Origin: Escherichia phage HK6
DNA: 64,000 nt
Direction: 5' to 3' (one strand)
Sequence record: PP724615.1
Part shown: piece after piece, positions 5,309 to 21,238 of the stretch
Layout: each line of letters starts with the position of its first letter
Numbering within the stretch: position 1 is the stretch's first letter
Made by a program: the position numbers and the translations under genes
The notes under the pieces: generated by a model
Told to the model about the DNA's origin: nothing
Databases searched by the model: none
The model's input: only the letters and a program-made list of their open reading frames with translations

Positions 5309-5315
5309 TCCACGT

Positions 5316-5342
5316 AACCGAGTCATTTTGGCTCGGTTTTAT
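5316..5342 (+). terminator. rho-independent terminator
   Basis: Hairpin CCGAGTCATTTTGGCTCGG followed by TTTT. Confidence 0.55.
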
Positions 5343-5384
5343 CCGTACTCAAGACCAATGATAGCACCATCCGGAAAATTTTAC

Positions 5385-5413
5385 TTGCAGGATGCCCAAA
5401 ATCTTGATATAAT
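5385..5413 (+). promoter_or_regulatory. sigma70-type promoter (TTGCAG-17-TATAAT)
   Basis: -35 TTGCAG 5385-5390, -10 TATAAT 5408-5413, followed by ATTTATATTGAATTGAGAGA resembling the downstream element of the other early promoters. Confidence 0.45.
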
Positions 5414-5911
5414 ATTTATATTGAATTGAGAGACATTAGTAAAAATTGATTTTGCTAATTTTTCTTGTTTACAATCCGCGATACGGAACAGTTAGGCTGC
5501 CCCATTAAGGGTTGTTTTAACTGTTACGTGTTAGTTTTTAAACAAATAGTTAATAGAATACTTAGCGATCTACATCCCGTAGGAACCCTGGTAAGGCCTC
5601 GAAGCAACCTAGTGTGAGGTGGTTGTGAAGTGAGACGGGAAGAGTGAAAAACTCTGAGAAGTGATGACGTAAGGTATACTGCATCTAGTATGAGCTAGTA
5701 CATGAAGCATTAGGTGAGCAAATCTGGCTTAGCGGCCATCCTCAAGGATTTGTGCGGTATAGTGAAGCGGCAGTGTAGCGTGAAAGGGGAAGTTGCCACC
5801 CCCCTTCAGTATTTGCGATTAATTGTTGAGAAATTGACAGTAACAGTTGTTCTATTCTTTCTGAATAGTCCTAAAGAAAACTTATTTCATTTCCAACACA
5901 GGAGTATTGTT

Positions 5912-8701
5912 GTGTTCTCAATCCTACAAGGTCATGCAGGATTTCATCGCGACTTAGCCACAGGCATTTGGCGAGAAGTTAAAGCAGAAGACTATCTTTT
6001 TGCTAAAAGATTTTCCTCAAAGCATCCTGAAGGTAAACCAGCTTCAATGCCCTTCAAGTTTGATGTAATTGATGAAGTTGATCCTCAAACCCTAGTAGAA
6101 ATGCTCCCTCTTATGAGACGTTTAACGTCTGACCCTCATATCGTTGCGGTACGAGGTCGATGTCTTGCACCCAAAAATAACGTGCGGCGTAAGAAGGGCA
6201 ACTTTAATGTATCTAACCCAAGTCATATAATTGCATTGGACGTGGATGGTATTGTAGATACAGGTGGTTGTAACAAGTTTGATCTTGTTGGCATGGCTCG
6301 ACATATTATTAGGATGTTAAATAGTATTAGTGAGGATATGTTTCCTCTTGATGCAGGGTTTATTGCTCATGCATCGTCTTCGGCTGGGCTAAAACCAGGT
6401 ATCCGAATGCACTTAATACTAGAATCTAATGTTAAAGTAACTCAGGGTCAAATCAAATTCTTATTTACATCTATCAACGAAAGTAGTAGACAAAAGTATG
6501 GCTTTGATATTGCCGACTTAGCTTATTACTCTTCCGTACAGCTCCATTATTTTGCAGATCCGTTATTTACCGATGGTATAGTAGATCCGTTTAAAGCGGA
6601 GGGTGCCTCACGTCTGGTATTTGTTAAGGGTTCTAAAGTAAATTTACCTAATAATCTGGTTGACTATGAAACAACTAGAGGTGAGTTTAAAGAGGAGTTC
6701 TACTCTTTACTCGACCAAATTAAGGGTAAAAAAGCTGCCTCTGATAAAGTAGAGGAAACTATCAGCGAACTAGAAGAAGCTGAGGATGGAGTGTACCTAC
6801 GTATTATACCTAAACTCTATCATAGAGCTTTGGAGGATGGTGTTGATTTTGCATGGCTAGAAAAAGAAATCCGTCCAGCCTTATCAGAATATATTGCAAC
6901 TAAAGATAATAGTCGCAATATTCAAGATTACTTTAATAACGGTCGTAAGCAGGCTCTAAAAGCATTTGTTAATAATTCTAAACGTGATATACCTGATGTT
7001 TTAAAAGGTATTCCACTTAAAAAGCTAGAAACTAACTCTCTAGAAACTGATAACTTCTTGAAATTAAATACTGTACCACCAGAAGGTTATATGACTTTTG
7101 TAAAAGCAAGTCTAGGTACAGGTAAAACTACGGCGGTTGTGCGTTGGTTAGATTCAGGAGTTATTAAAGGTAATTTCTTAGCAATTACCAATACTCGAGC
7201 ACTGGTATCTTCAAATGCTAAGAAATTTAGTGCAGGACAATATGATAAGTCTGTAGATATGCTTAATTTTAAGCGTGGCGCTATTGACCGTATGTCCACA
7301 ACTATACATTCTTTGCATAAGTTCAAGAGTTTTATTGGTCAAATTGATGCAATCTTTATCGATGAATGTGATGCTGTAATGAATGACCTATTATTCGCCC
7401 CGGTTGTTAAACAACGTCGTGAATGTATTCAGGTTCTTCGGGATATTCTTGCAACTGCAAAAATCATTATATTATCTGATGGGGATATTAGTGCAGAAAC
7501 AATTGAAGCATACGGTTCTTTGATTGAGTTTGATAAACCAGTAGCATTTTATAATCATCACCGTAAGATGCTGTCAAAAGCTCATGCTTATGAGTTCCCT
7601 GACGAATCCAGTATTTGGGTTGCACTTCAGACTTCTCTAGAGATGGGTGAGAAATCTATCCTAGTATCTGACTGTGGTCCAGATGAACTGAATGAGAAGG
7701 GCATGGCGTTGCGTCGTAATACGGGTGCGTTAGTTAAGGAAATCCACTCAAACTCTACGTCTGATGTAGATATTCGACGTATTCTGGATTACACAACTAA
7801 TGAGTTAATTGACCAACAAATTGATTGCTTATTATGTAGCCCATCCGTAACGAGCGGTGTTGACTTTAACTATTTTGATAACGTATTCGTTATTACTAGG
7901 ACCAGTAACCAAGCGCCAAACATGCGTTTTCAAGCAATCAGGCGCGACCGTGGCGCTCAGAACATTTATTATTTTATTGATAAATCTACGAGTGGATTCT
8001 CCGCAGGTTCTGAGCAATATAACATTGACGAGGGTTGGCTGGAGTTAGCACAGCAATTATACGCACGTCGCAGAGAGCTGGAATCTAGGAACTATACTAG
8101 TACTTTACGTTACTATTTGCTTGATCAGGGTGCAACTATTGATATTTTCAGTGAAAGCTGGGGAACTATCGAAGGTGCGGGGAAAGAATATACAGAAGAG
8201 CGAATCAAAGCCATTTTGTATTCAACCCCTGATTATTGTGCTCCACGCCATGCAGATGCGTATGAAGCTAAACTACTTCTTGTACGCTATTATCATCTTG
8301 AGTCTATTAAAGATGTAACAGTTGAGCATGTTGAACAATATATCAAGGATAAACCGAATGATCGAGCTGCATTCTTCCATAAGATGCACGAGATGTTCTG
8401 GGAAGATATTAAGAAGTGTTCAAATGTCACTATCAAACCATTCATAGAAGCTCTGAAAGGTAAGAAGAAAGATTTCTTCCTTAAAACAGGTCAGAGTGCT
8501 AACCCAAAATATGCAAGAATGTATCTTGGTATGATGGGTATTGGTAAGGATATGAACACGGAGAATATTGTAGACTGGTACAGAACCTATTGTAAAATCG
8601 AGTGTATGCCAATCCCATATAAGTTTATGACTGATGAGGAGAAACATATGCATGATGAAGCAATGGCAGAGCTAGGTGCTAGAAATGACAGTGAAGAATA
8701 A
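5912..8701 (+). CDS. replication-associated P-loop helicase (replication-origin-binding-protein-like), ~930 aa
   Basis: Walker A ASLGTGKTTAV, Walker B IFIDECDAV and later LLCSPSVTSGVDF; proposed start is GTG 5912 with AGGAG 7 nt upstream; the track start at 5714 is an in-frame GTG without RBS, and ATG 6047 is an alternative. Confidence 0.6.
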   Translation: MFSILQGHAGFHRDLATGIWREVKAEDYLFAKRFSSKHPEGKPASMPFKFDVIDEVDPQTLVEMLPLMRRLTSDPHIVAVRGRCLAPKNNVRRKKGNFNVSNPSHIIALDVDGIVDTGGCNKFDLVGMARHIIRMLNSISEDMFPLDAGFIAHASSSAGLKPGIRMHLILESNVKVTQGQIKFLFTSINESSRQKYGFDIADLAYYSSVQLHYFADPLFTDGIVDPFKAEGASRLVFVKGSKVNLPNNLVDYETTRGEFKEEFYSLLDQIKGKKAASDKVEETISELEEAEDGVYLRIIPKLYHRALEDGVDFAWLEKEIRPALSEYIATKDNSRNIQDYFNNGRKQALKAFVNNSKRDIPDVLKGIPLKKLETNSLETDNFLKLNTVPPEGYMTFVKASLGTGKTTAVVRWLDSGVIKGNFLAITNTRALVSSNAKKFSAGQYDKSVDMLNFKRGAIDRMSTTIHSLHKFKSFIGQIDAIFIDECDAVMNDLLFAPVVKQRRECIQVLRDILATAKIIILSDGDISAETIEAYGSLIEFDKPVAFYNHHRKMLSKAHAYEFPDESSIWVALQTSLEMGEKSILVSDCGPDELNEKGMALRRNTGALVKEIHSNSTSDVDIRRILDYTTNELIDQQIDCLLCSPSVTSGVDFNYFDNVFVITRTSNQAPNMRFQAIRRDRGAQNIYYFIDKSTSGFSAGSEQYNIDEGWLELAQQLYARRRELESRNYTSTLRYYLLDQGATIDIFSESWGTIEGAGKEYTEERIKAILYSTPDYCAPRHADAYEAKLLLVRYYHLESIKDVTVEHVEQYIKDKPNDRAAFFHKMHEMFWEDIKKCSNVTIKPFIEALKGKKKDFFLKTGQSANPKYARMYLGMMGIGKDMNTENIVDWYRTYCKIECMPIPYKFMTDEEKHMHDEAMAELGARNDSEE

Positions 8702-8918
8702 AAAATGGGAAACAAGGAAGTTCCCAGTAAAAGAACGTAAAGTTCCTGTTTACGACACTTCGGAAAAGCTATGTAGGGTAGTACCGCATAGATTAGCTGG
8801 CATCCCTAACATATCCGAGTGGTTACTTAAACAACGGAAAACAAACGTGTCTCTTCGTATCGGCTTTGAGTTAGATAAAGTCTACGCTGAACTTGCTTCT
8901 TTGCTCAAGGAATCGTAA
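8676..8918 (+). CDS. hypothetical protein, 80 aa
   Basis: ORF overlapping the 3' end of the helicase gene; start uncertain. Confidence 0.35.
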   Translation: MLEMTVKNKKWETRKFPVKERKVPVYDTSEKLCRVVPHRLAGIPNISEWLLKQRKTNVSLRIGFELDKVYAELASLLKES

Positions 8919-8926
8919 AAATTTAT

Positions 8927-8955
8927 TTGCTTTCAGGAAAATTTTTCTGTATAAT
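8927..8955 (+). promoter_or_regulatory. strong early promoter, matches the classic T5 PN25 promoter as I recall it
   Basis: AAAATTTATTTGCTTTCAGGAAAATTTTTCTGTATAATAGATTCATAAATTTGAGAGAGGAG; -35 TTGCTT 8927-8932, 17-nt spacer, -10 TATAAT 8950-8955. Confidence 0.7.
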
Positions 8956-8986
8956 AGATTCATAAATTTGAGAGAGGAGTTTAAAT

Positions 8987-14231: not shown

Positions 14232-14265
14232 AAGGGGAGGGGGCTATGCTCCTTCCCCTTTTTGC
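14232..14265 (+). terminator. rho-independent terminator
   Basis: GC-rich hairpin AAGGGGAGGGGGCTATGCTCCTTCCCCTT followed by TTTTGC. Confidence 0.55.
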
Positions 14266-14296: not shown

Positions 14297-15769
14297 ATGA
14301 CCTTGTTTAACGTGCAAGCTGTAGTGTTGAAGATGCTTCTCGCTTCCGAACAGAAGCAAATAGCATTGGAAACATTCTCAAAACTGCATAAAGATCATTT
14401 TAATGACGCTTTCTCCTCAATTTACCAAGCCGTCCAGAATTATTATAAAAAATATAACACAATGCCGTCCATTGACGCACTTATGCTTGAAGCTAATAGG
14501 AACGCCCGCCTTTCTCAAGCTCTAGTCGTCTTAGCTAACACTCAAATTCCAGAAGTGAGCATGGAACAGGCACTTGAAGTCCTAGAGGCCGAATATACAC
14601 AGGATTTATTCCTGAAGCTTCTAGAAACAGACGTGCTTCAAGATTTAACAATGCTGGATCAGGGAGAAATTCTCAACCGAGTTGCCTCCCTTCACTTAAA
14701 ATTAGAAGAGAAAGTAACGAATACTGGAAAAGTATTCAACGCAGATAACATGCGTATTTTCCAGAGAGAAGAAGATACCAAACTGAACTTAATCGCTCTT
14801 GGTATTTGTAATGAGTTCGACGCTCAAATTGGTTTAGCTCGCACAGAAACGTTACTGCTTGGTGGTTGGCGTGGTACTGGTAAATCCATTATCTGTTCAA
14901 ACATACAGGTTCAGCAATATTTGAATGGGGATATTGCTCCATACTTCTCAATTGAGATGAAAGAACATGAAGTATTTAGACGTAATCTAGCCATGTTAGC
15001 TGGTGTATCAGCATTAGCAATGCGTAATAATACTCTAGAAGGTGCAGCTCTATTAAGATTAGCCAGAACTAGAGCTAGAATGTTTAATGGTGGTGAAGAG
15101 CTTTTCGATAACTTCGTTAAACAGTACACAATGGCTAAGATGAGTGATTTCTACGATATGGAGAGTAAACTAATAGAAGGGTATGAGCTACATACTCCTA
15201 TGATTATTGTTTATGACCCTGAGCTGTCTATTACAACAGTTGACGTAGAATTAAATAAATTAGTTGCTAGATATGGAGATAAAGTTACAGTAGCTTTACT
15301 GGACTATATTAACCAAACCCGACTTCCAGATTCTAAAACCATTGATATGTATGACTGGAAAGAACAGATGGTTGTTAGCTCGTCTTTCAAATCTATCTGC
15401 CAGAAACATAACGTGGCTGGTGTAGCTCCTTACCAGATCGATCAAGATGGTAGAACACGTATGTCAAAGGGGATTCTTGATTCCGCAGACATGGCTGCTA
15501 ATCTTAATGCTGCAAAAGCTGATAATGGTCAAGGTGCTATTATGTTTGACTTCGTTAAGACTCGTTCTTCTGATAGCGTGAAGTTTATGCCTAAAATGAA
15601 CTGGGAAACTCTGCGAATGGATAACACTACCAACCTAGCAATGGAAGATATATCTCAAATGGAAGCTGAGTTCGTTATCCCTATTGAGAAGGATAAGCCG
15701 GCTCAACCTAAACGTGCTAAGAAAGACAAAACTGAAAATTCAACAGGTGAACAGGCCAGCGATATATGA
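14297..15769 (+). CDS. DnaB-family replicative helicase, ~490 aa
   Basis: Walker A GGWRGTGKS followed by FSIEM (DnaB H1a), Walker B VALLDYINQ, and PYQIDQ; ATG 14297 with AGGAG RBS (track start 14246 lies inside the terminator). Confidence 0.75.
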   Translation: MTLFNVQAVVLKMLLASEQKQIALETFSKLHKDHFNDAFSSIYQAVQNYYKKYNTMPSIDALMLEANRNARLSQALVVLANTQIPEVSMEQALEVLEAEYTQDLFLKLLETDVLQDLTMLDQGEILNRVASLHLKLEEKVTNTGKVFNADNMRIFQREEDTKLNLIALGICNEFDAQIGLARTETLLLGGWRGTGKSIICSNIQVQQYLNGDIAPYFSIEMKEHEVFRRNLAMLAGVSALAMRNNTLEGAALLRLARTRARMFNGGEELFDNFVKQYTMAKMSDFYDMESKLIEGYELHTPMIIVYDPELSITTVDVELNKLVARYGDKVTVALLDYINQTRLPDSKTIDMYDWKEQMVVSSSFKSICQKHNVAGVAPYQIDQDGRTRMSKGILDSADMAANLNAAKADNGQGAIMFDFVKTRSSDSVKFMPKMNWETLRMDNTTNLAMEDISQMEAEFVIPIEKDKPAQPKRAKKDKTENSTGEQASDI

Positions 15770-16656
15770 GTAGAATAACAGAACTACTTGATCTGAAAGG
15801 CATTGAATATAAAGACACAGGTGGGGACATCCTCATCTGTTGTCTCAATCCAGATCATGACGATAAACACCCAAGTTTGCGTATTGATCCTGAAACAGGT
15901 ATTATGCACTGCTTGAGTTGTGGCTTCGGTAAAGGTATACCGAGCATTTACCATTATTTTAATGAGACTCAGTACAGACAGTCCCCAAGGCTATCGCAAG
16001 TACGCAAAAAGATTTCAGAGATTAGGAATGGATCAACGAATCTTGCAATTCCTGAATCTGCTTACCTTTTCGAAGGTGATTTCCGAGGTATAAGTTCTAA
16101 GACCTTGAAGAAATATTTTGCTTTCCAACACCAAGCAGACTGGGAAGGCAGAATTGTATTCCCAATCACAGATGCTGTTGGACGCAATATCCTATTTTTG
16201 GGTCGTTCTATAAACAGTTCTGCCCCTCCTAAATACTTAGTAAAACCAAAACAAGTTTCACCGCCGATTTTCCCTGTACGATATAATACTCCAGTGCTTA
16301 TTCTAGTTGAAGGTATCTTTGATATGCTGAACCTAGAGGATAATGGTATAGACTATGCTTCTTGCTGCTTTGGTACACATCAGTTCACTTCAGATAACAT
16401 TGCAGATAAGTTCAGTCCTTATATTATTGCTGGTGTAAAAGTTGTTGTTATCTTACTAGATAATGATGCTTCTGGTAATAAAGCTGCACAAGCGTTGGCC
16501 AAGCTAATTCGTACAAAAACGCGTTTAACACCTGTAGTTGCTAACTTTCTCCTACCTGAAGGCAAAGATCCAGGTGAGTTAAACAAAGATGAAATTGATA
16601 TGTTAGCAAAACGTATTGAAATTTTAGTTGCTGAATCGCTTAAAGATTTGGTATAA
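15766..16656 (+). CDS. DnaG-like DNA primase (Zn ribbon + Toprim), 296 aa
   Basis: Zn-binding CCLNPDHDDKHPSLRIDPETGIMHCLSCG; Toprim acidic motifs EGIFDMLNLED and ILLDNDASGNKAA; start overlaps the helicase stop. Confidence 0.75.
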   Translation: MSRITELLDLKGIEYKDTGGDILICCLNPDHDDKHPSLRIDPETGIMHCLSCGFGKGIPSIYHYFNETQYRQSPRLSQVRKKISEIRNGSTNLAIPESAYLFEGDFRGISSKTLKKYFAFQHQADWEGRIVFPITDAVGRNILFLGRSINSSAPPKYLVKPKQVSPPIFPVRYNTPVLILVEGIFDMLNLEDNGIDYASCCFGTHQFTSDNIADKFSPYIIAGVKVVVILLDNDASGNKAAQALAKLIRTKTRLTPVVANFLLPEGKDPGELNKDEIDMLAKRIEILVAESLKDLV

Positions 16657-16657
16657 T
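16628..16657 (+). promoter_or_regulatory. candidate sigma70 promoter for the polymerase gene inside the primase 3' end
   Basis: TTGCTG 16628-16633, 18-nt spacer, TATAAT 16652-16657. Confidence 0.4.
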
Positions 16658-16718
16658 ATATTGGTAAGTTAGAGAAGAAACACTGAAGTTATACTTACTT
16701 ACCAAGAGGAGATTAAAT

Positions 16719-19286
16719 TTGAAAATCGCAGTAGTTGATAAAGCTCTAAATAACACTCGTTATGATAAACATTTCCAGCTATACGGCGAGGAAGTTGATG
16801 TATTCCATATGTGTAACGAGAAGTTATCTGGTCGTTTGCTTAAAAAGCACATTACTATTGGAACACCAGAAAACCCATTTGATCCGAATGATTATGATTT
16901 TGTTATACTAGTAGGTGCTGAACCTTTCCTGTATTTCGCAGGTAAGAAAGGCATTGGTGACTATACTGGTAAACGTGTAGAGTATAATGGATATGCTAAC
17001 TGGATTGCGAGTATCAGCCCAGCCCAGTTACACTTTAAACCTGAAATGAAACCAGTTTTTGATGCAACAGTAGAGAATATCCACGATATTATCAATGGTC
17101 GTGAGAAGATTGCAAAAGCTGGTGATTACCGTCCTATTACTGACCCTGACGAGGCGGAAGAATATATCAAGATGGTGTATAATATGGTTATCGGACCTGT
17201 AGCATTCGACTCCGAAACCTCAGCACTATACTGTCGAGATGGTTATCTGCTTGGTGTTTCTATGTCTCACCAAGAGTATCAGGGTGTGTATATCGATTCT
17301 GATTGCCTCACAGAGGTTGCAGTATATTATCTCCAGAAAATTCTGGATAGTGAAAATCACACTATTGTTTTTCACAACCTGAAGTTTGATATGCACTTTT
17401 ATAAGTACCATCTGGGACTTACTTTTGACAAAGCACATAAAGAACGCAGGCTCCATGATACCATGTTGCAGCATTATGTTCTGGATGAGCGTCGTGGTAC
17501 TCATGGCTTGAAATCTCTAGCAATGAAGTATACCGATATGGGTGACTATGACTTTGAACTAGATAAGTTCAAGGAGGATTACTGCAAAGCACATAAAATC
17601 AAGAAAGAAGATTTCACTTATGATTTAATTCCGTTTGATATTATGTGGCCTTACGCTGCAAAAGATACCGATGCCACCATACGTTTGCACAATTTCTTCT
17701 TACCAAAAATTGAGAAGAATGAAAAACTTTGCAGTCTGTATTATGATGTTCTAATGCCTGGTTGTGTATTTCTCCAGCGTGTTGAGGATCGTGGTGTACC
17801 AATTTCTATTGATCGCTTGAAAGAAGCTCAGTATCAGTTAACTCATAATCTGAATAAAGCTCGTGAGAAGCTGTATACTTATCCAGAAGTCGTTCAGCTA
17901 GAGAAAGATCAGAACGAAGCGTTTAACCCAAACTCTGTTAAACAACTCCGTGTTCTTCTGTTTGATTATGTTGGCTTAACTCCAACAGGTAAATTGACGG
18001 ATACTGGAGCAGACTCTACAGATGCAGAGGCTTTGAACGAATTGTCTACGCAGCATCCAATTGCTAAGACTCTACTAGAAATTCGTAAGCTGACTAAGCT
18101 GATCTCTACTTATGTTGAGAAGATTCTTCTGAGTATTGATGCAGATGGTTGCATTCGTACTGGCTTCCATGAACACATGACTACTTCTGGTCGTCTGAGT
18201 TCTTCTGGTAAACTGAACCTGCAACAGTTACCTCGTGATGAATCTATTATCAAGGGTTGTGTAGTAGCTCCTCCCGGGTATCGTGTAATCGCATGGGACT
18301 TAACAACTGCGGAAGTTTATTATGCTGCTGTTCTATCTGGTGATAGAAATATGCAACAGGTATTTATCAACATGAGAAATGAACCTGATAAATACCCTGA
18401 CTTCCACTCTAACATCGCACACATGGTATTTAAGCTCCAATGCGAACCTCGTGATGTTAAAAAGTTGTTCCCAGCTCTGCGTCAGGCTGCTAAGGCAATT
18501 ACCTTTGGTATTTTGTATGGTTCTGGCCCGGCTAAAGTAGCTCATTCTGTTAATGAAGCTCTTCTGGAACAAGCTGCTAAGACAGGCGAACCGTTTGTAG
18601 AATGTACTGTTGCAGATGCTAAAGAGTACATTGAAACTTATTTCGGTCAGTTCCCGCAGCTTAAGCGTTGGATTGATAAGTGCCACGATCAAATCAAGAA
18701 TCATGGGTTTATCTATAGTCACTTTGGGCGTAAACGTCGTCTGCATAATATCCACTCCGAAGACCGTGGTGTTCAGGGTGAAGAAATTCGTTCTGGATTT
18801 AACGCAATCATTCAGTCTGCTTCCTCTGATAGCCTCCTTTTAGGTGCTGTAGATGCAGATAATGAGATCATTTCTCTTGGCCTAGAACAAGAGATGAAGA
18901 TTGTTATGCTGGTTCATGACTCCGTAGTTGCTATTGTTCGTGAGGATTTGATTGATCAATACAATGAAATCCTGATTCGTAATATCCAAAAAGACCGTGG
19001 TATCAGTATTCCTGGCTGTCCGATTGGTATTGATTCTGATTCTGAAGCTGGAGGTTCTCGTGACTACTCTTGTGGTAAGATGAAGAAGCAGCATCCATCA
19101 ATCGCTTGTATTGATGATGATGAATATACTCGTTATGTCAAGGGTGTATTACTTGACGCAGAATTCGAGTATAAGAAACTAGCTGCAATGGATAAAGAGC
19201 ATCCAGATCATAGCAAATACAAGGATGATAAGTTTATTGCTGTATGTAAAGATTTGGATAACGTGAGAAGGATTCTCGGTGCTTGA
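16719..19286 (+). CDS. family A DNA polymerase with 3'-5' exonuclease domain, 855 aa
   Basis: Exo motifs VAFDSETSAL, FHNLKFDMHF, YAAKDTDAT; polymerase motif B RQAAKAITFGILYGSG and motif C VHDS; TTG start with AGGAG 7 nt upstream. Confidence 0.9.
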   Translation: MKIAVVDKALNNTRYDKHFQLYGEEVDVFHMCNEKLSGRLLKKHITIGTPENPFDPNDYDFVILVGAEPFLYFAGKKGIGDYTGKRVEYNGYANWIASISPAQLHFKPEMKPVFDATVENIHDIINGREKIAKAGDYRPITDPDEAEEYIKMVYNMVIGPVAFDSETSALYCRDGYLLGVSMSHQEYQGVYIDSDCLTEVAVYYLQKILDSENHTIVFHNLKFDMHFYKYHLGLTFDKAHKERRLHDTMLQHYVLDERRGTHGLKSLAMKYTDMGDYDFELDKFKEDYCKAHKIKKEDFTYDLIPFDIMWPYAAKDTDATIRLHNFFLPKIEKNEKLCSLYYDVLMPGCVFLQRVEDRGVPISIDRLKEAQYQLTHNLNKAREKLYTYPEVVQLEKDQNEAFNPNSVKQLRVLLFDYVGLTPTGKLTDTGADSTDAEALNELSTQHPIAKTLLEIRKLTKLISTYVEKILLSIDADGCIRTGFHEHMTTSGRLSSSGKLNLQQLPRDESIIKGCVVAPPGYRVIAWDLTTAEVYYAAVLSGDRNMQQVFINMRNEPDKYPDFHSNIAHMVFKLQCEPRDVKKLFPALRQAAKAITFGILYGSGPAKVAHSVNEALLEQAAKTGEPFVECTVADAKEYIETYFGQFPQLKRWIDKCHDQIKNHGFIYSHFGRKRRLHNIHSEDRGVQGEEIRSGFNAIIQSASSDSLLLGAVDADNEIISLGLEQEMKIVMLVHDSVVAIVREDLIDQYNEILIRNIQKDRGISIPGCPIGIDSDSEAGGSRDYSCGKMKKQHPSIACIDDDEYTRYVKGVLLDAEFEYKKLAAMDKEHPDHSKYKDDKFIAVCKDLDNVRRILGA

Positions 19287-21208: not shown

Positions 21209-21238
21209 TTGCTAAATTCTCTCGAAATCTAGTATAAT
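21209..21238 (+). promoter_or_regulatory. sigma70-type early promoter (TTGCTA-18-TATAAT)
   Basis: -35 TTGCTA 21209-21214, -10 TATAAT 21233-21238, then ATATACATAAATTCGAGGAG; a second -10 plus ATACATAAATTTGAGAGAG copy lies at 21132-21160. Confidence 0.5.

Follow-up and report, generated by a model that had tools for sequence, protein, structure and literature searches.

The window analyzed here is a 64,000-nucleotide stretch of Escherichia phage HK6 (PP724615.1), to judge by its sequence the DNA of a T5-like phage (Tequintavirus), and the element in question is the leader of its DNA polymerase gene (pol), which lies between the primase gene and the pol start codon. Comparison of related phages indicates that this leader holds a real, evolutionarily conserved RNA hairpin, which evolves by compensatory changes across the Demerecviridae and is tied to the pol promoter and not to the Shine-Dalgarno (SD) sequence; as far as the literature examined shows, this is newly seen. 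The explanation that we tentatively favor is that the hairpin forms a conserved 5'-terminal stem-loop that would stabilize or insulate the pol mRNA, and that the TTG start codon of pol independently lowers expression to a modest degree. Neither the TTG start nor the promoter is new, since the RefSeq record of phage T5 annotates both.

The leader hairpin and the pol promoter

A first-pass annotation of the window had described an inverted repeat in which TTGGTAAG (16661-68) pairs with CTTACCAA (16698-705), and a base-by-base reading of the sequence bore out this and all its other coordinates. The stem in fact comprises 9 bp, one more than had been described (16661-69/16697-705; Table 1), and a repeat finder returned 12 nt that are 92% complementary with one U·U mismatch (16661-72/16694-705). 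The T5-type hairpin is AU-rich, with a weak stem (-9 to -11 kcal/mol) and a loop of 21-27 nt. Judged from the single sequence its significance is marginal: z is -1.51 when 25 nt of unstructured flank are included, and -2.4 to -2.6 (p ~0.01-0.03) for the leader alone. No curated Rfam family matched at the hairpin, and only chance-level hits were returned elsewhere in the window. No second copy was found within three mismatches in the window, and a covariance model run on the window and on 25 kb of T5 gave no second hit; a repeated regulatory motif shared with other genes was therefore rejected. A further repeat (I2, 16616-24/16715-23) is simply the palindrome AAATTT present twice. An intrinsic terminator scan listed no site at 16661-16712, and the 3' flank, AGAGGAGAUUAAAU, contains no U-run.

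The hairpin was found in close and distant relatives alike and is under selection. In five clades, a stem links the nucleotides right after the -10 hexamer to those before the SD; it has 9 bp in T5, Epseptimavirus and Yersinia phage phiR2-01 (z -2.5), 11 bp in Klebsiella phages (-15.2 kcal/mol, z -4.4) and 13 bp in the Vibrio Thalassavirus (z -6), and reads GUUGGAU/AUCCAAC in Proteus phages (z -2.1). The Fisher-combined p over clades is ~5e-7, with the caveat that the clades are related. From T5 to Thalassavirus, pairs changed from U-A to G-C, U-A to A-U, and G-C to U-A; from T5 to Proteus, from U-A to A-U and A-U to U-A, with a new outer G-C; and from T5 to Klebsiella, from U-A to G·U, with two new outer pairs. 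The new non-Watson-Crick pairs are all G·U on the + strand (twice in Klebsiella, and in the records L022, L040, L045, and L058), and none is A·C, which indicates that an RNA helix of the sense transcript has been maintained and not a DNA palindrome or an antisense RNA. Note that MAFFT/RNAalifold misaligned the Proteus and Vibrio arms, and the base-pair comparison was made by hand; the covariance model failed to reach Thalassavirus and picked up reverse-strand self-matches.

The 601 nt around the site match 440 phage records at 89-99% identity, all of them T5-like (Tequintavirus and Epseptimavirus). Pairwise differences among 26 distinct T5-like sequences average 0.010 in the hairpin (16661-16705), 0.027 in the promoter, 0.07 in the flanking coding sequences (CDS), and 0.18 at third codon positions; diversity in the hairpin is thus ~18-fold below that of synonymous sites. 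The 67-nt segment from the -10 to the SD has at least 95% identity in 435 records, whereas over 601 nt only 182/440 reach that level. Proteus phages that are 7-8% apart in the region likewise differ by one substitution in a 62-nt leader.

The candidate promoter TTGCTG..TATAAT that had been pointed out upstream of pol is a genuine T5 early-type promoter, by its architecture and by its RefSeq annotation, and on sequence grounds it clearly belongs to the T5 early sigma-70 family. Its parts are an A/T block (AAATTTTAG, 16619-27), the -35 hexamer TTGCTG (16628-33), an 18-nt spacer, and the -10 hexamer TATAAT (16652-57). Two features had been missed: a TG at 16649-50, which makes an extended -10, and the TAA stop codon of primase, which falls within the -10 box. 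A generic promoter scan did not list the pol promoter because its -35 matches TTGACA at only 3/6 positions. Nine promoters of the window were compared (PN25 at 8908-8982, others at 1994, 5408, 9976, 11192, 12639, 21132, and 21233), and they have in common the A/T block, a TTGCT -35, a spacer of 17-18 nt, and TATAAT. The promoter at 21233 reads AAATTTTAGTTGCTA-18-TATAAT, and the AAATTTTAGTTGCT of the pol promoter is identical to it. The discriminator at 16658-16662 is ATATT, the consensus described for every known T5 early promoter (Klimuk et al. 2020, PMC7472727). A promoter feature at 70987..71061 of the T5 RefSeq record (NC_005859) corresponds to window 16609-16683, and a putative promoter is annotated likewise in Salmonella phage S114 (MH370367). 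TGnTATAAT has been kept just ahead of the pol gene in Klebsiella, Proteus, Providencia, Pectobacterium, and several Vibrio phage clades, all of them with a polymerase N-terminus of only 35-60% identity.

By analogy with PN25 (TATAAT-AGATTC-A+1), transcription would start at the seventh nucleotide after the -10, G16664; the convention of the 75-nt RefSeq box would place it at G16663. In all five clades, the sixth to eighth nucleotides after the -10 lie inside the 5' arm. If +1 is indeed at 16663/4, the stem begins within ~0-2 nt of the 5' end of the transcript, and the pair probability of the T5 stem is 1.0 for a start at 16663 or ~0.6 for one at 16664. In the enterobacterial clades, the hairpin takes up the entire interval from the -10 to the SD, so its position there cannot by itself tell which neighbor is the relevant one. 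In Thalassavirus, 3 nt separate the -10 from the stem, just as they do in T5 (5' arm GAGGUAAUUCGGAGAAG vs. UUGGUAAGUUAGAGAAG in T5), and ~40 nt separate the 3' end of the stem from the SD (the ATG is ~50 nt away). In relatives that carry a gene cassette between primase and pol (described below), the second promoter copy is joined to the hairpin with the spacing exactly kept, TATAAT-ATATTGG. The Thalassavirus separation and the cassette spacing together make the promoter and 5' end the conserved partner of the hairpin, and not the ribosome-binding site (RBS).

Start codon and ribosome-binding site

As the first-pass annotation had it, the 855-amino acid open reading frame (ORF) opens at TTG 16719-16721 and ends at 19286, according to both the sequence and the ORF list, and AGGAG (16707-16711) precedes the TTG by 7 nt; the full SD match is GAGGAGA. 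An in-frame TAA lies at 16665-67, and no ATG, GTG, or TTG occurs in frame between it and 16719. An upstream start, including an in-frame ATG, is thereby excluded, and the TTG is the sole possible start. It is also conserved: TTG was found in 24/24 Tequintavirus/Epseptimavirus contigs of an IMG/VR sample, and phiR2-01 and Providencia phage PSTCR5 have it too. Klebsiella, Proteus, and Vibrio relatives have ATG at the homologous codon, again with KIAVVDK after it; by group, ATG occurs in Sugarlandvirus-type Klebsiella phages, Proteus Novosibvirus, Pectobacterium My1, and Aeromonas and Vibrio phages. KIAVVDK is kept from residue 2 in all relatives compared, and in tblastn the similarity begins at residue 1-3 in 908/908 related records. 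Among the 24 CDS of the T5 replication region, pol alone starts with TTG (20 start with ATG and three with GTG).

Two other starts were considered and rejected. The ATG of the 1989 GenBank record M24354 (L003, M24354.1, position 121; window 16798; 829 amino acids) is in another reading frame, and that annotation has been superseded; the frame difference implies that the old record has a sequencing frameshift close to its 5' end. A start at M31 would remove the conserved N-terminus. A literature search found no N-terminal sequence of the T5 polymerase.

The first-pass annotation had also placed the stem-loop over the SD and suggested that the weak start codon and the structured leader together serve translational down-tuning or autoregulation. 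The last base of the 3' arm is 16705 and the first of the SD is 16706, so the two do not overlap; no predicted fold draws the SD or start codon into the stem, and the minimum-free-energy (MFE) structures leave the SD, spacer, and TTG unpaired. With the 5' arm disrupted in silico, the mean probability that the SD is unpaired went from 0.36 to 0.44 in RNA from the gene's own promoter, and from 0.42 to 0.27 in read-through RNA. In these models, the hairpin leaves the RBS free, and down-tuning by masking has no computational support, the accessibility of the SD and of the start codon being little affected by arm disruption. A long-range pairing of the SD with codons 18-19 (GGAGAU/AUUUCC) was discarded: it appeared in some folds only, was lost when the 3' boundary was moved, and is not conserved.

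What survives of the proposed down-tuning is the weak TTG, which plausibly trims initiation modestly; the hairpin neither overlaps nor sequesters the SD. With a strong SD (GAGGAG), an A/U spacer of 7 nt, and AAA for the second codon, the pol initiation region is near-optimal in all but its TTG. The TTG plausibly acts as a separate, lineage-specific, and modest attenuator of pol expression. UUG is one of three canonical E. coli start codons, which initiate at 10-100% of the AUG level, and ~3% of E. coli genes begin with it (Hecht et al., bioRxiv 10.1101/063800). The hairpin can evolve separately from the TTG: the Klebsiella and Proteus phages keep it with an ATG.

In L022 and L004/L033 (Klebsiella phages), an A-to-G substitution in the 3' arm (ACTTACTTACC to ACTTGCTTACC, equivalent to window 16698) creates an in-frame TTG 21 nt upstream of the true start and also changes a U-A pair to U·G. 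Since no SD precedes it, this extra TTG probably goes unused, although a gene caller might select it. A possible upstream ORF in the loop was likewise rejected: SD-like GAGAAG/AGGAGG is followed by CUG (in frame) in T5 or by UUG (out of frame) in Proteus, and the arrangement is not consistent.

Neighboring genes and other features of the window

The primase-pol intergenic region is identical to that of the T5 reference NC_005859, as are the 114 nt from promoter to start codon; the polymerase CDS of that record is T5.122 (71097..73664), with an identical leader. In T5 RefSeq (L093, 9614-10147) and in Escherichia phage JLBYU43, hegJ, which encodes an HNH homing endonuclease, lies between helicase and primase; it is absent from the window, where the helicase and primase ORFs share 4 nt (15766-15769). 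The missing hegJ and the overlap identify the window as a T5 relative and not the T5 reference strain. Features of the locus are collected in Table 1.

Table 1. Coordinates of the primase-pol junction in the window.
Feature	Position	Strand	Basis or remark
Primase gene	15766-16656	+	ORF list; T5 homologue
T5 early-type sigma-70 promoter of pol	16609..16657	+	Sequence, promoter comparison, RefSeq annotation
Primase stop codon TAA	16654..16656	+	Inside the -10 hexamer; sequence read and ORF list
Discriminator and predicted transcription start G16663/G16664	16658..16664	+	Analogy with PN25; RefSeq box convention
5' arm TTGGTAAGT	16661..16669	+	Sequence and folds; G16663/4 to U16669 predicted as first nucleotides of promoter-initiated RNA
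In-frame stop TAA upstream of TTG	16665..16667	+	Sequence read in frame; TTG is the first start after it
Loop/internal region UAGAGAAGAAACACUGAAGUUAUACUU	16670..16696	+	Folds; purine-rich, 2-6 weak inner pairs
3' arm ACTTACCAA	16697..16705	+	Ends 1 nt before the SD
SD GAGGAGA	16706..16712	+	Outside the stem; unpaired in MFE structures
DNA polymerase gene (family A, T5 pol, 855 amino acids, TTG start)	16719..19286	+	ORF list, T5 RefSeq CDS, Klenow-type match

About 15% of the sampled T5-like records have a 330-nt ORF (109 amino acids, hypothetical) between primase and pol, an example being JLBYU43 (L001, 1758-2150); the insertion point corresponds to window 16657/16658. This cassette is flanked by two early-promoter copies, TTGCTG-18-TGGTATAAT and TTGCTA-17-TGATATAAT, with the junction exactly at TATAATA, which suggests gene-cassette exchange via recombination between promoters.

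In Thalassavirus (L006, Vibrio phage Javier, 494-565; also L040, L041, L045, and L058), the pol promoter is TTGCAA-17-TGATATAAT, followed after 3 nt by a 13-bp terminator hairpin, and transcripts from it would begin inside the 5' arm of the terminator. This hairpin may terminate promoter-started RNA or may only stop primase read-through.

Two other structured regions were seen in the window. A terminator-like hairpin at 14232-14260 (13 pairs, eight of them GC, then TTTGC) spans the annotated start of the D6 helicase gene, with the ATG (14246) in the loop and the SD-like AAGGGGAGGGGG as the 5' arm; as an example of a structured initiation region, it is far stronger than the pol leader. At 5375-5467, in an ORF-free stretch (5309-5713) upstream of a 995-amino acid ORF (5714-8701), a strong hairpin with a U-run (AUUAGUAAAAAU..AUUUUGCUAAUUUUUCUUG; -13.1 kcal/mol, z -4.0) lies no more than ~15 nt downstream of a canonical T5 early promoter (TTGCAG-17-TGATATAAT, -10 at 5408-13); the unit is a candidate small RNA or leader attenuator. 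PN25 (+, 8908-8982) and PD/E20 (minus strand, around 36922) occur in the window almost verbatim, and the ATTAAAGAGGAGAAATTAACTATG ribosome-binding region of PD/E20 is presumably the 'RBSII' of the pQE/pDS vectors.

Possible functions of the leader and known systems

T5 is a classic model phage whose promoters and RBS are widely used in expression vectors; to our knowledge, its post-transcriptional control is essentially unexplored. On the reading that we tentatively favor, the T5 early promoter, with the primase stop codon in its -10, would fire at about G16663/4, and the first six to seven transcribed nucleotides (GGUAAGU) would pair with the ACUUACC that lies directly ahead of the SD. The resulting mRNA would start with a stem-loop, leaving no unpaired 5' nucleotide, with the SD, spacer, and TTG single-stranded directly 3' of it. 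Such a stem-loop would, rather like a 5' cap, block 5'-end-dependent attack (RppH/RNase E), as its 5'-terminal counterparts do in the ompA, papA, and T7 gene 10 mRNAs, and with the leader locked away, the RBS would be equally open in promoter-initiated and read-through transcripts. That 5'-terminal stem-loops stabilize E. coli mRNA is established (Emory et al. 1992; Bouvet & Belasco 1992; both cited in PMC3997798), and the pol stem was found to be both stable and evolutionarily maintained, as a stabilizing stem-loop of this kind should be.

Several observations weigh against this reading. The literature search found no experimental transcription start map of T5, the start used here resting on analogy, and no half-life data for T5 pol mRNA. 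The stem of the fifth clade, Providencia, is 6 bp plus 4 bp and not significant (z -0.5). Pectobacterium My1 and several Vibrio/marine clades keep the promoter and have no such stem, and in Thalassavirus the stem is terminator-like, i.e., of a different function. The stem, with its compensatory outer pairs in Klebsiella and Providencia, reaches 2-5 nt upstream of the predicted start; such pairs can form only in read-through RNA, and a purely 5'-terminal role leaves them unexplained. Finally, the 27-nt loop is as conserved as the arms, which is not required of a simple protective stem and hints at a sequence-specific partner or a promoter-escape constraint. It is the predicted start, the pairs upstream of it, and the conserved loop that keep the rival explanations alive.

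One of these is a translational operator, in which the polymerase itself or another early protein would bind the stem-loop together with the SD and repress pol, the weak TTG being easier to out-compete. The hairpin does end 1-3 nt before the SD in all enterobacterial clades, its loop is under purifying selection as strong as that on the arms, as expected of a protein-binding site, and its uniqueness in the window and in 25 kb of T5 fits a gene-specific operator; moreover, T4 gp43 is a polymerase known to bind a hairpin-plus-RBS operator (PMC3014915). However, the T5 polymerase is of family A and unrelated to gp43, and the literature gave no experimental hint of an operator for T5; the Protein Data Bank holds no T5 polymerase structure. 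The gp43 operators of T4 and RB69 contain a 16-18-nt hairpin with a conserved UAAC/UAAA-type loop (PMC3014915), whereas the T5 element spans 45 nt, with a loop of 21-27 nt that is not of this type. A gp43-type operator overlaps the RBS; the T5 stem abuts the SD without including it, and a protein footprint could extend over the SD. The ~40 nt between stem and SD in Thalassavirus and the uncoupling of hairpin and TTG in the Klebsiella and Proteus phages also speak against an operator. T4-style autoregulation of T5 pol is not favored, and we regard an operator of any kind as unlikely.

It also seems doubtful that the hairpin is a transcript-boundary element, descended from a primase-pol terminator or attenuator and acting in T5 on read-through RNA as a pause, an RNase III/RNase E signal, or a protector of the primase 3' end. 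The homologous position in Thalassavirus, 3 nt after the -10, is occupied by the 13-bp stem followed by UUUUUAUUU, a U-run, which the scan scores as a terminator; the outer pairs that co-vary in Klebsiella and Providencia exist only in read-through RNA, and in read-through contexts the full stem has a pair probability of 0.9-1.0. Against this, no U-run follows the stem in any enterobacterial clade, so that it is not an intrinsic terminator there. Canonical RNase III sites are ~20 bp, and the stem is too short and too interrupted to be one; a ribosome terminating at the primase UAA (16654-56) would, in addition, cover the 5' arm.

A more ambitious proposal, which we likewise judge improbable, makes the pol leader a dedicated regulatory RNA across the Demerecviridae, either an operator by which the family-A polymerase or another early protein would set its own dosage (convergent with T4 gp43) or a promoter-proximal attenuator that persists as a terminator in Vibrio phages. 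Room for it is left by the sequence conservation of the 27-nt loop, by the element being unique, and by the pairs that co-vary upstream of the predicted start.

The initial transcribed region of T5 early promoters tunes promoter escape, and the leader might be conserved at that level, the inverted repeat being secondary or incidental. The conservation trough begins at the promoter (16609) and runs through the leader, and the 5' arm plus loop (GGUAAGUUAGAGAAG) are similar to AUAAAUUUGAGAGAGGAG, the canonical downstream region of PN25-type T5 promoters. Nevertheless, such a constraint is quite improbable as the explanation, for it accounts neither for conservation of the 3' arm 35-45 nt downstream, nor for the maintenance of pairing between clades through compensatory and G·U changes, nor for the structural z-scores. 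A functionless chance inverted repeat in AT-rich non-coding DNA, with the TTG tolerated, would suit the AU-rich stem and single-sequence z-scores of only -1.5 to -2.6, but is highly improbable in view of the 18-fold reduction in diversity relative to synonymous sites, the stem kept with different arm sequences in five clades, and the combined p.

Whichever role applies, the leader structure is kept for the polymerase gene in phages of E. coli, Salmonella, Klebsiella, Proteus, Providencia, and Vibrio, which points to a control point for polymerase dosage or message stability. Should it be only a 5' protective hairpin with a modestly weak start, it would be a tidy but ordinary example.

Known systems resemble the pol leader in different respects. 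With the canonical T5 early promoters (PN25, PN26, P28, P31A/B, and PD/E20), the pol promoter shares the A/T block, TTGCT, TATAAT, and ATATT, and pol also has their strong GAGGAG RBS; it differs in its 18-nt spacer and extended -10. The canonical promoters continue into an initial transcribed AUAAAUUUGAGAG and a 20-25 nt unstructured leader, whereas pol has GGUAAGU... and a structured leader of 55 nt. The Thalassavirus homologue, with its 13-bp stem and U-run, is like an intrinsic terminator or attenuator; the T5-type hairpin, in contrast, has a weak stem, a large loop, and no U-run. The gene 43 operator of T4/RB69 is, like the T5 hairpin, unique in its genome and immediately 5' of the SD of a replicative polymerase, but that polymerase is of family B, not A, and the T5-type hairpin follows the promoter and not the SD in the Vibrio relatives. 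The ompA 5' untranslated region (UTR) hairpin hp1, papA, and the T7 gene 10 leader are alike in having a stem at or within one nucleotide of +1 (in T5, if the predicted +1 is right), and in placing this 5' UTR stem upstream of an exposed SD with no protein partner needed. Relative to these three, the T5 stem continues upstream of the predicted +1, and its loop is unusually large (21-27 nt) and conserved in sequence.

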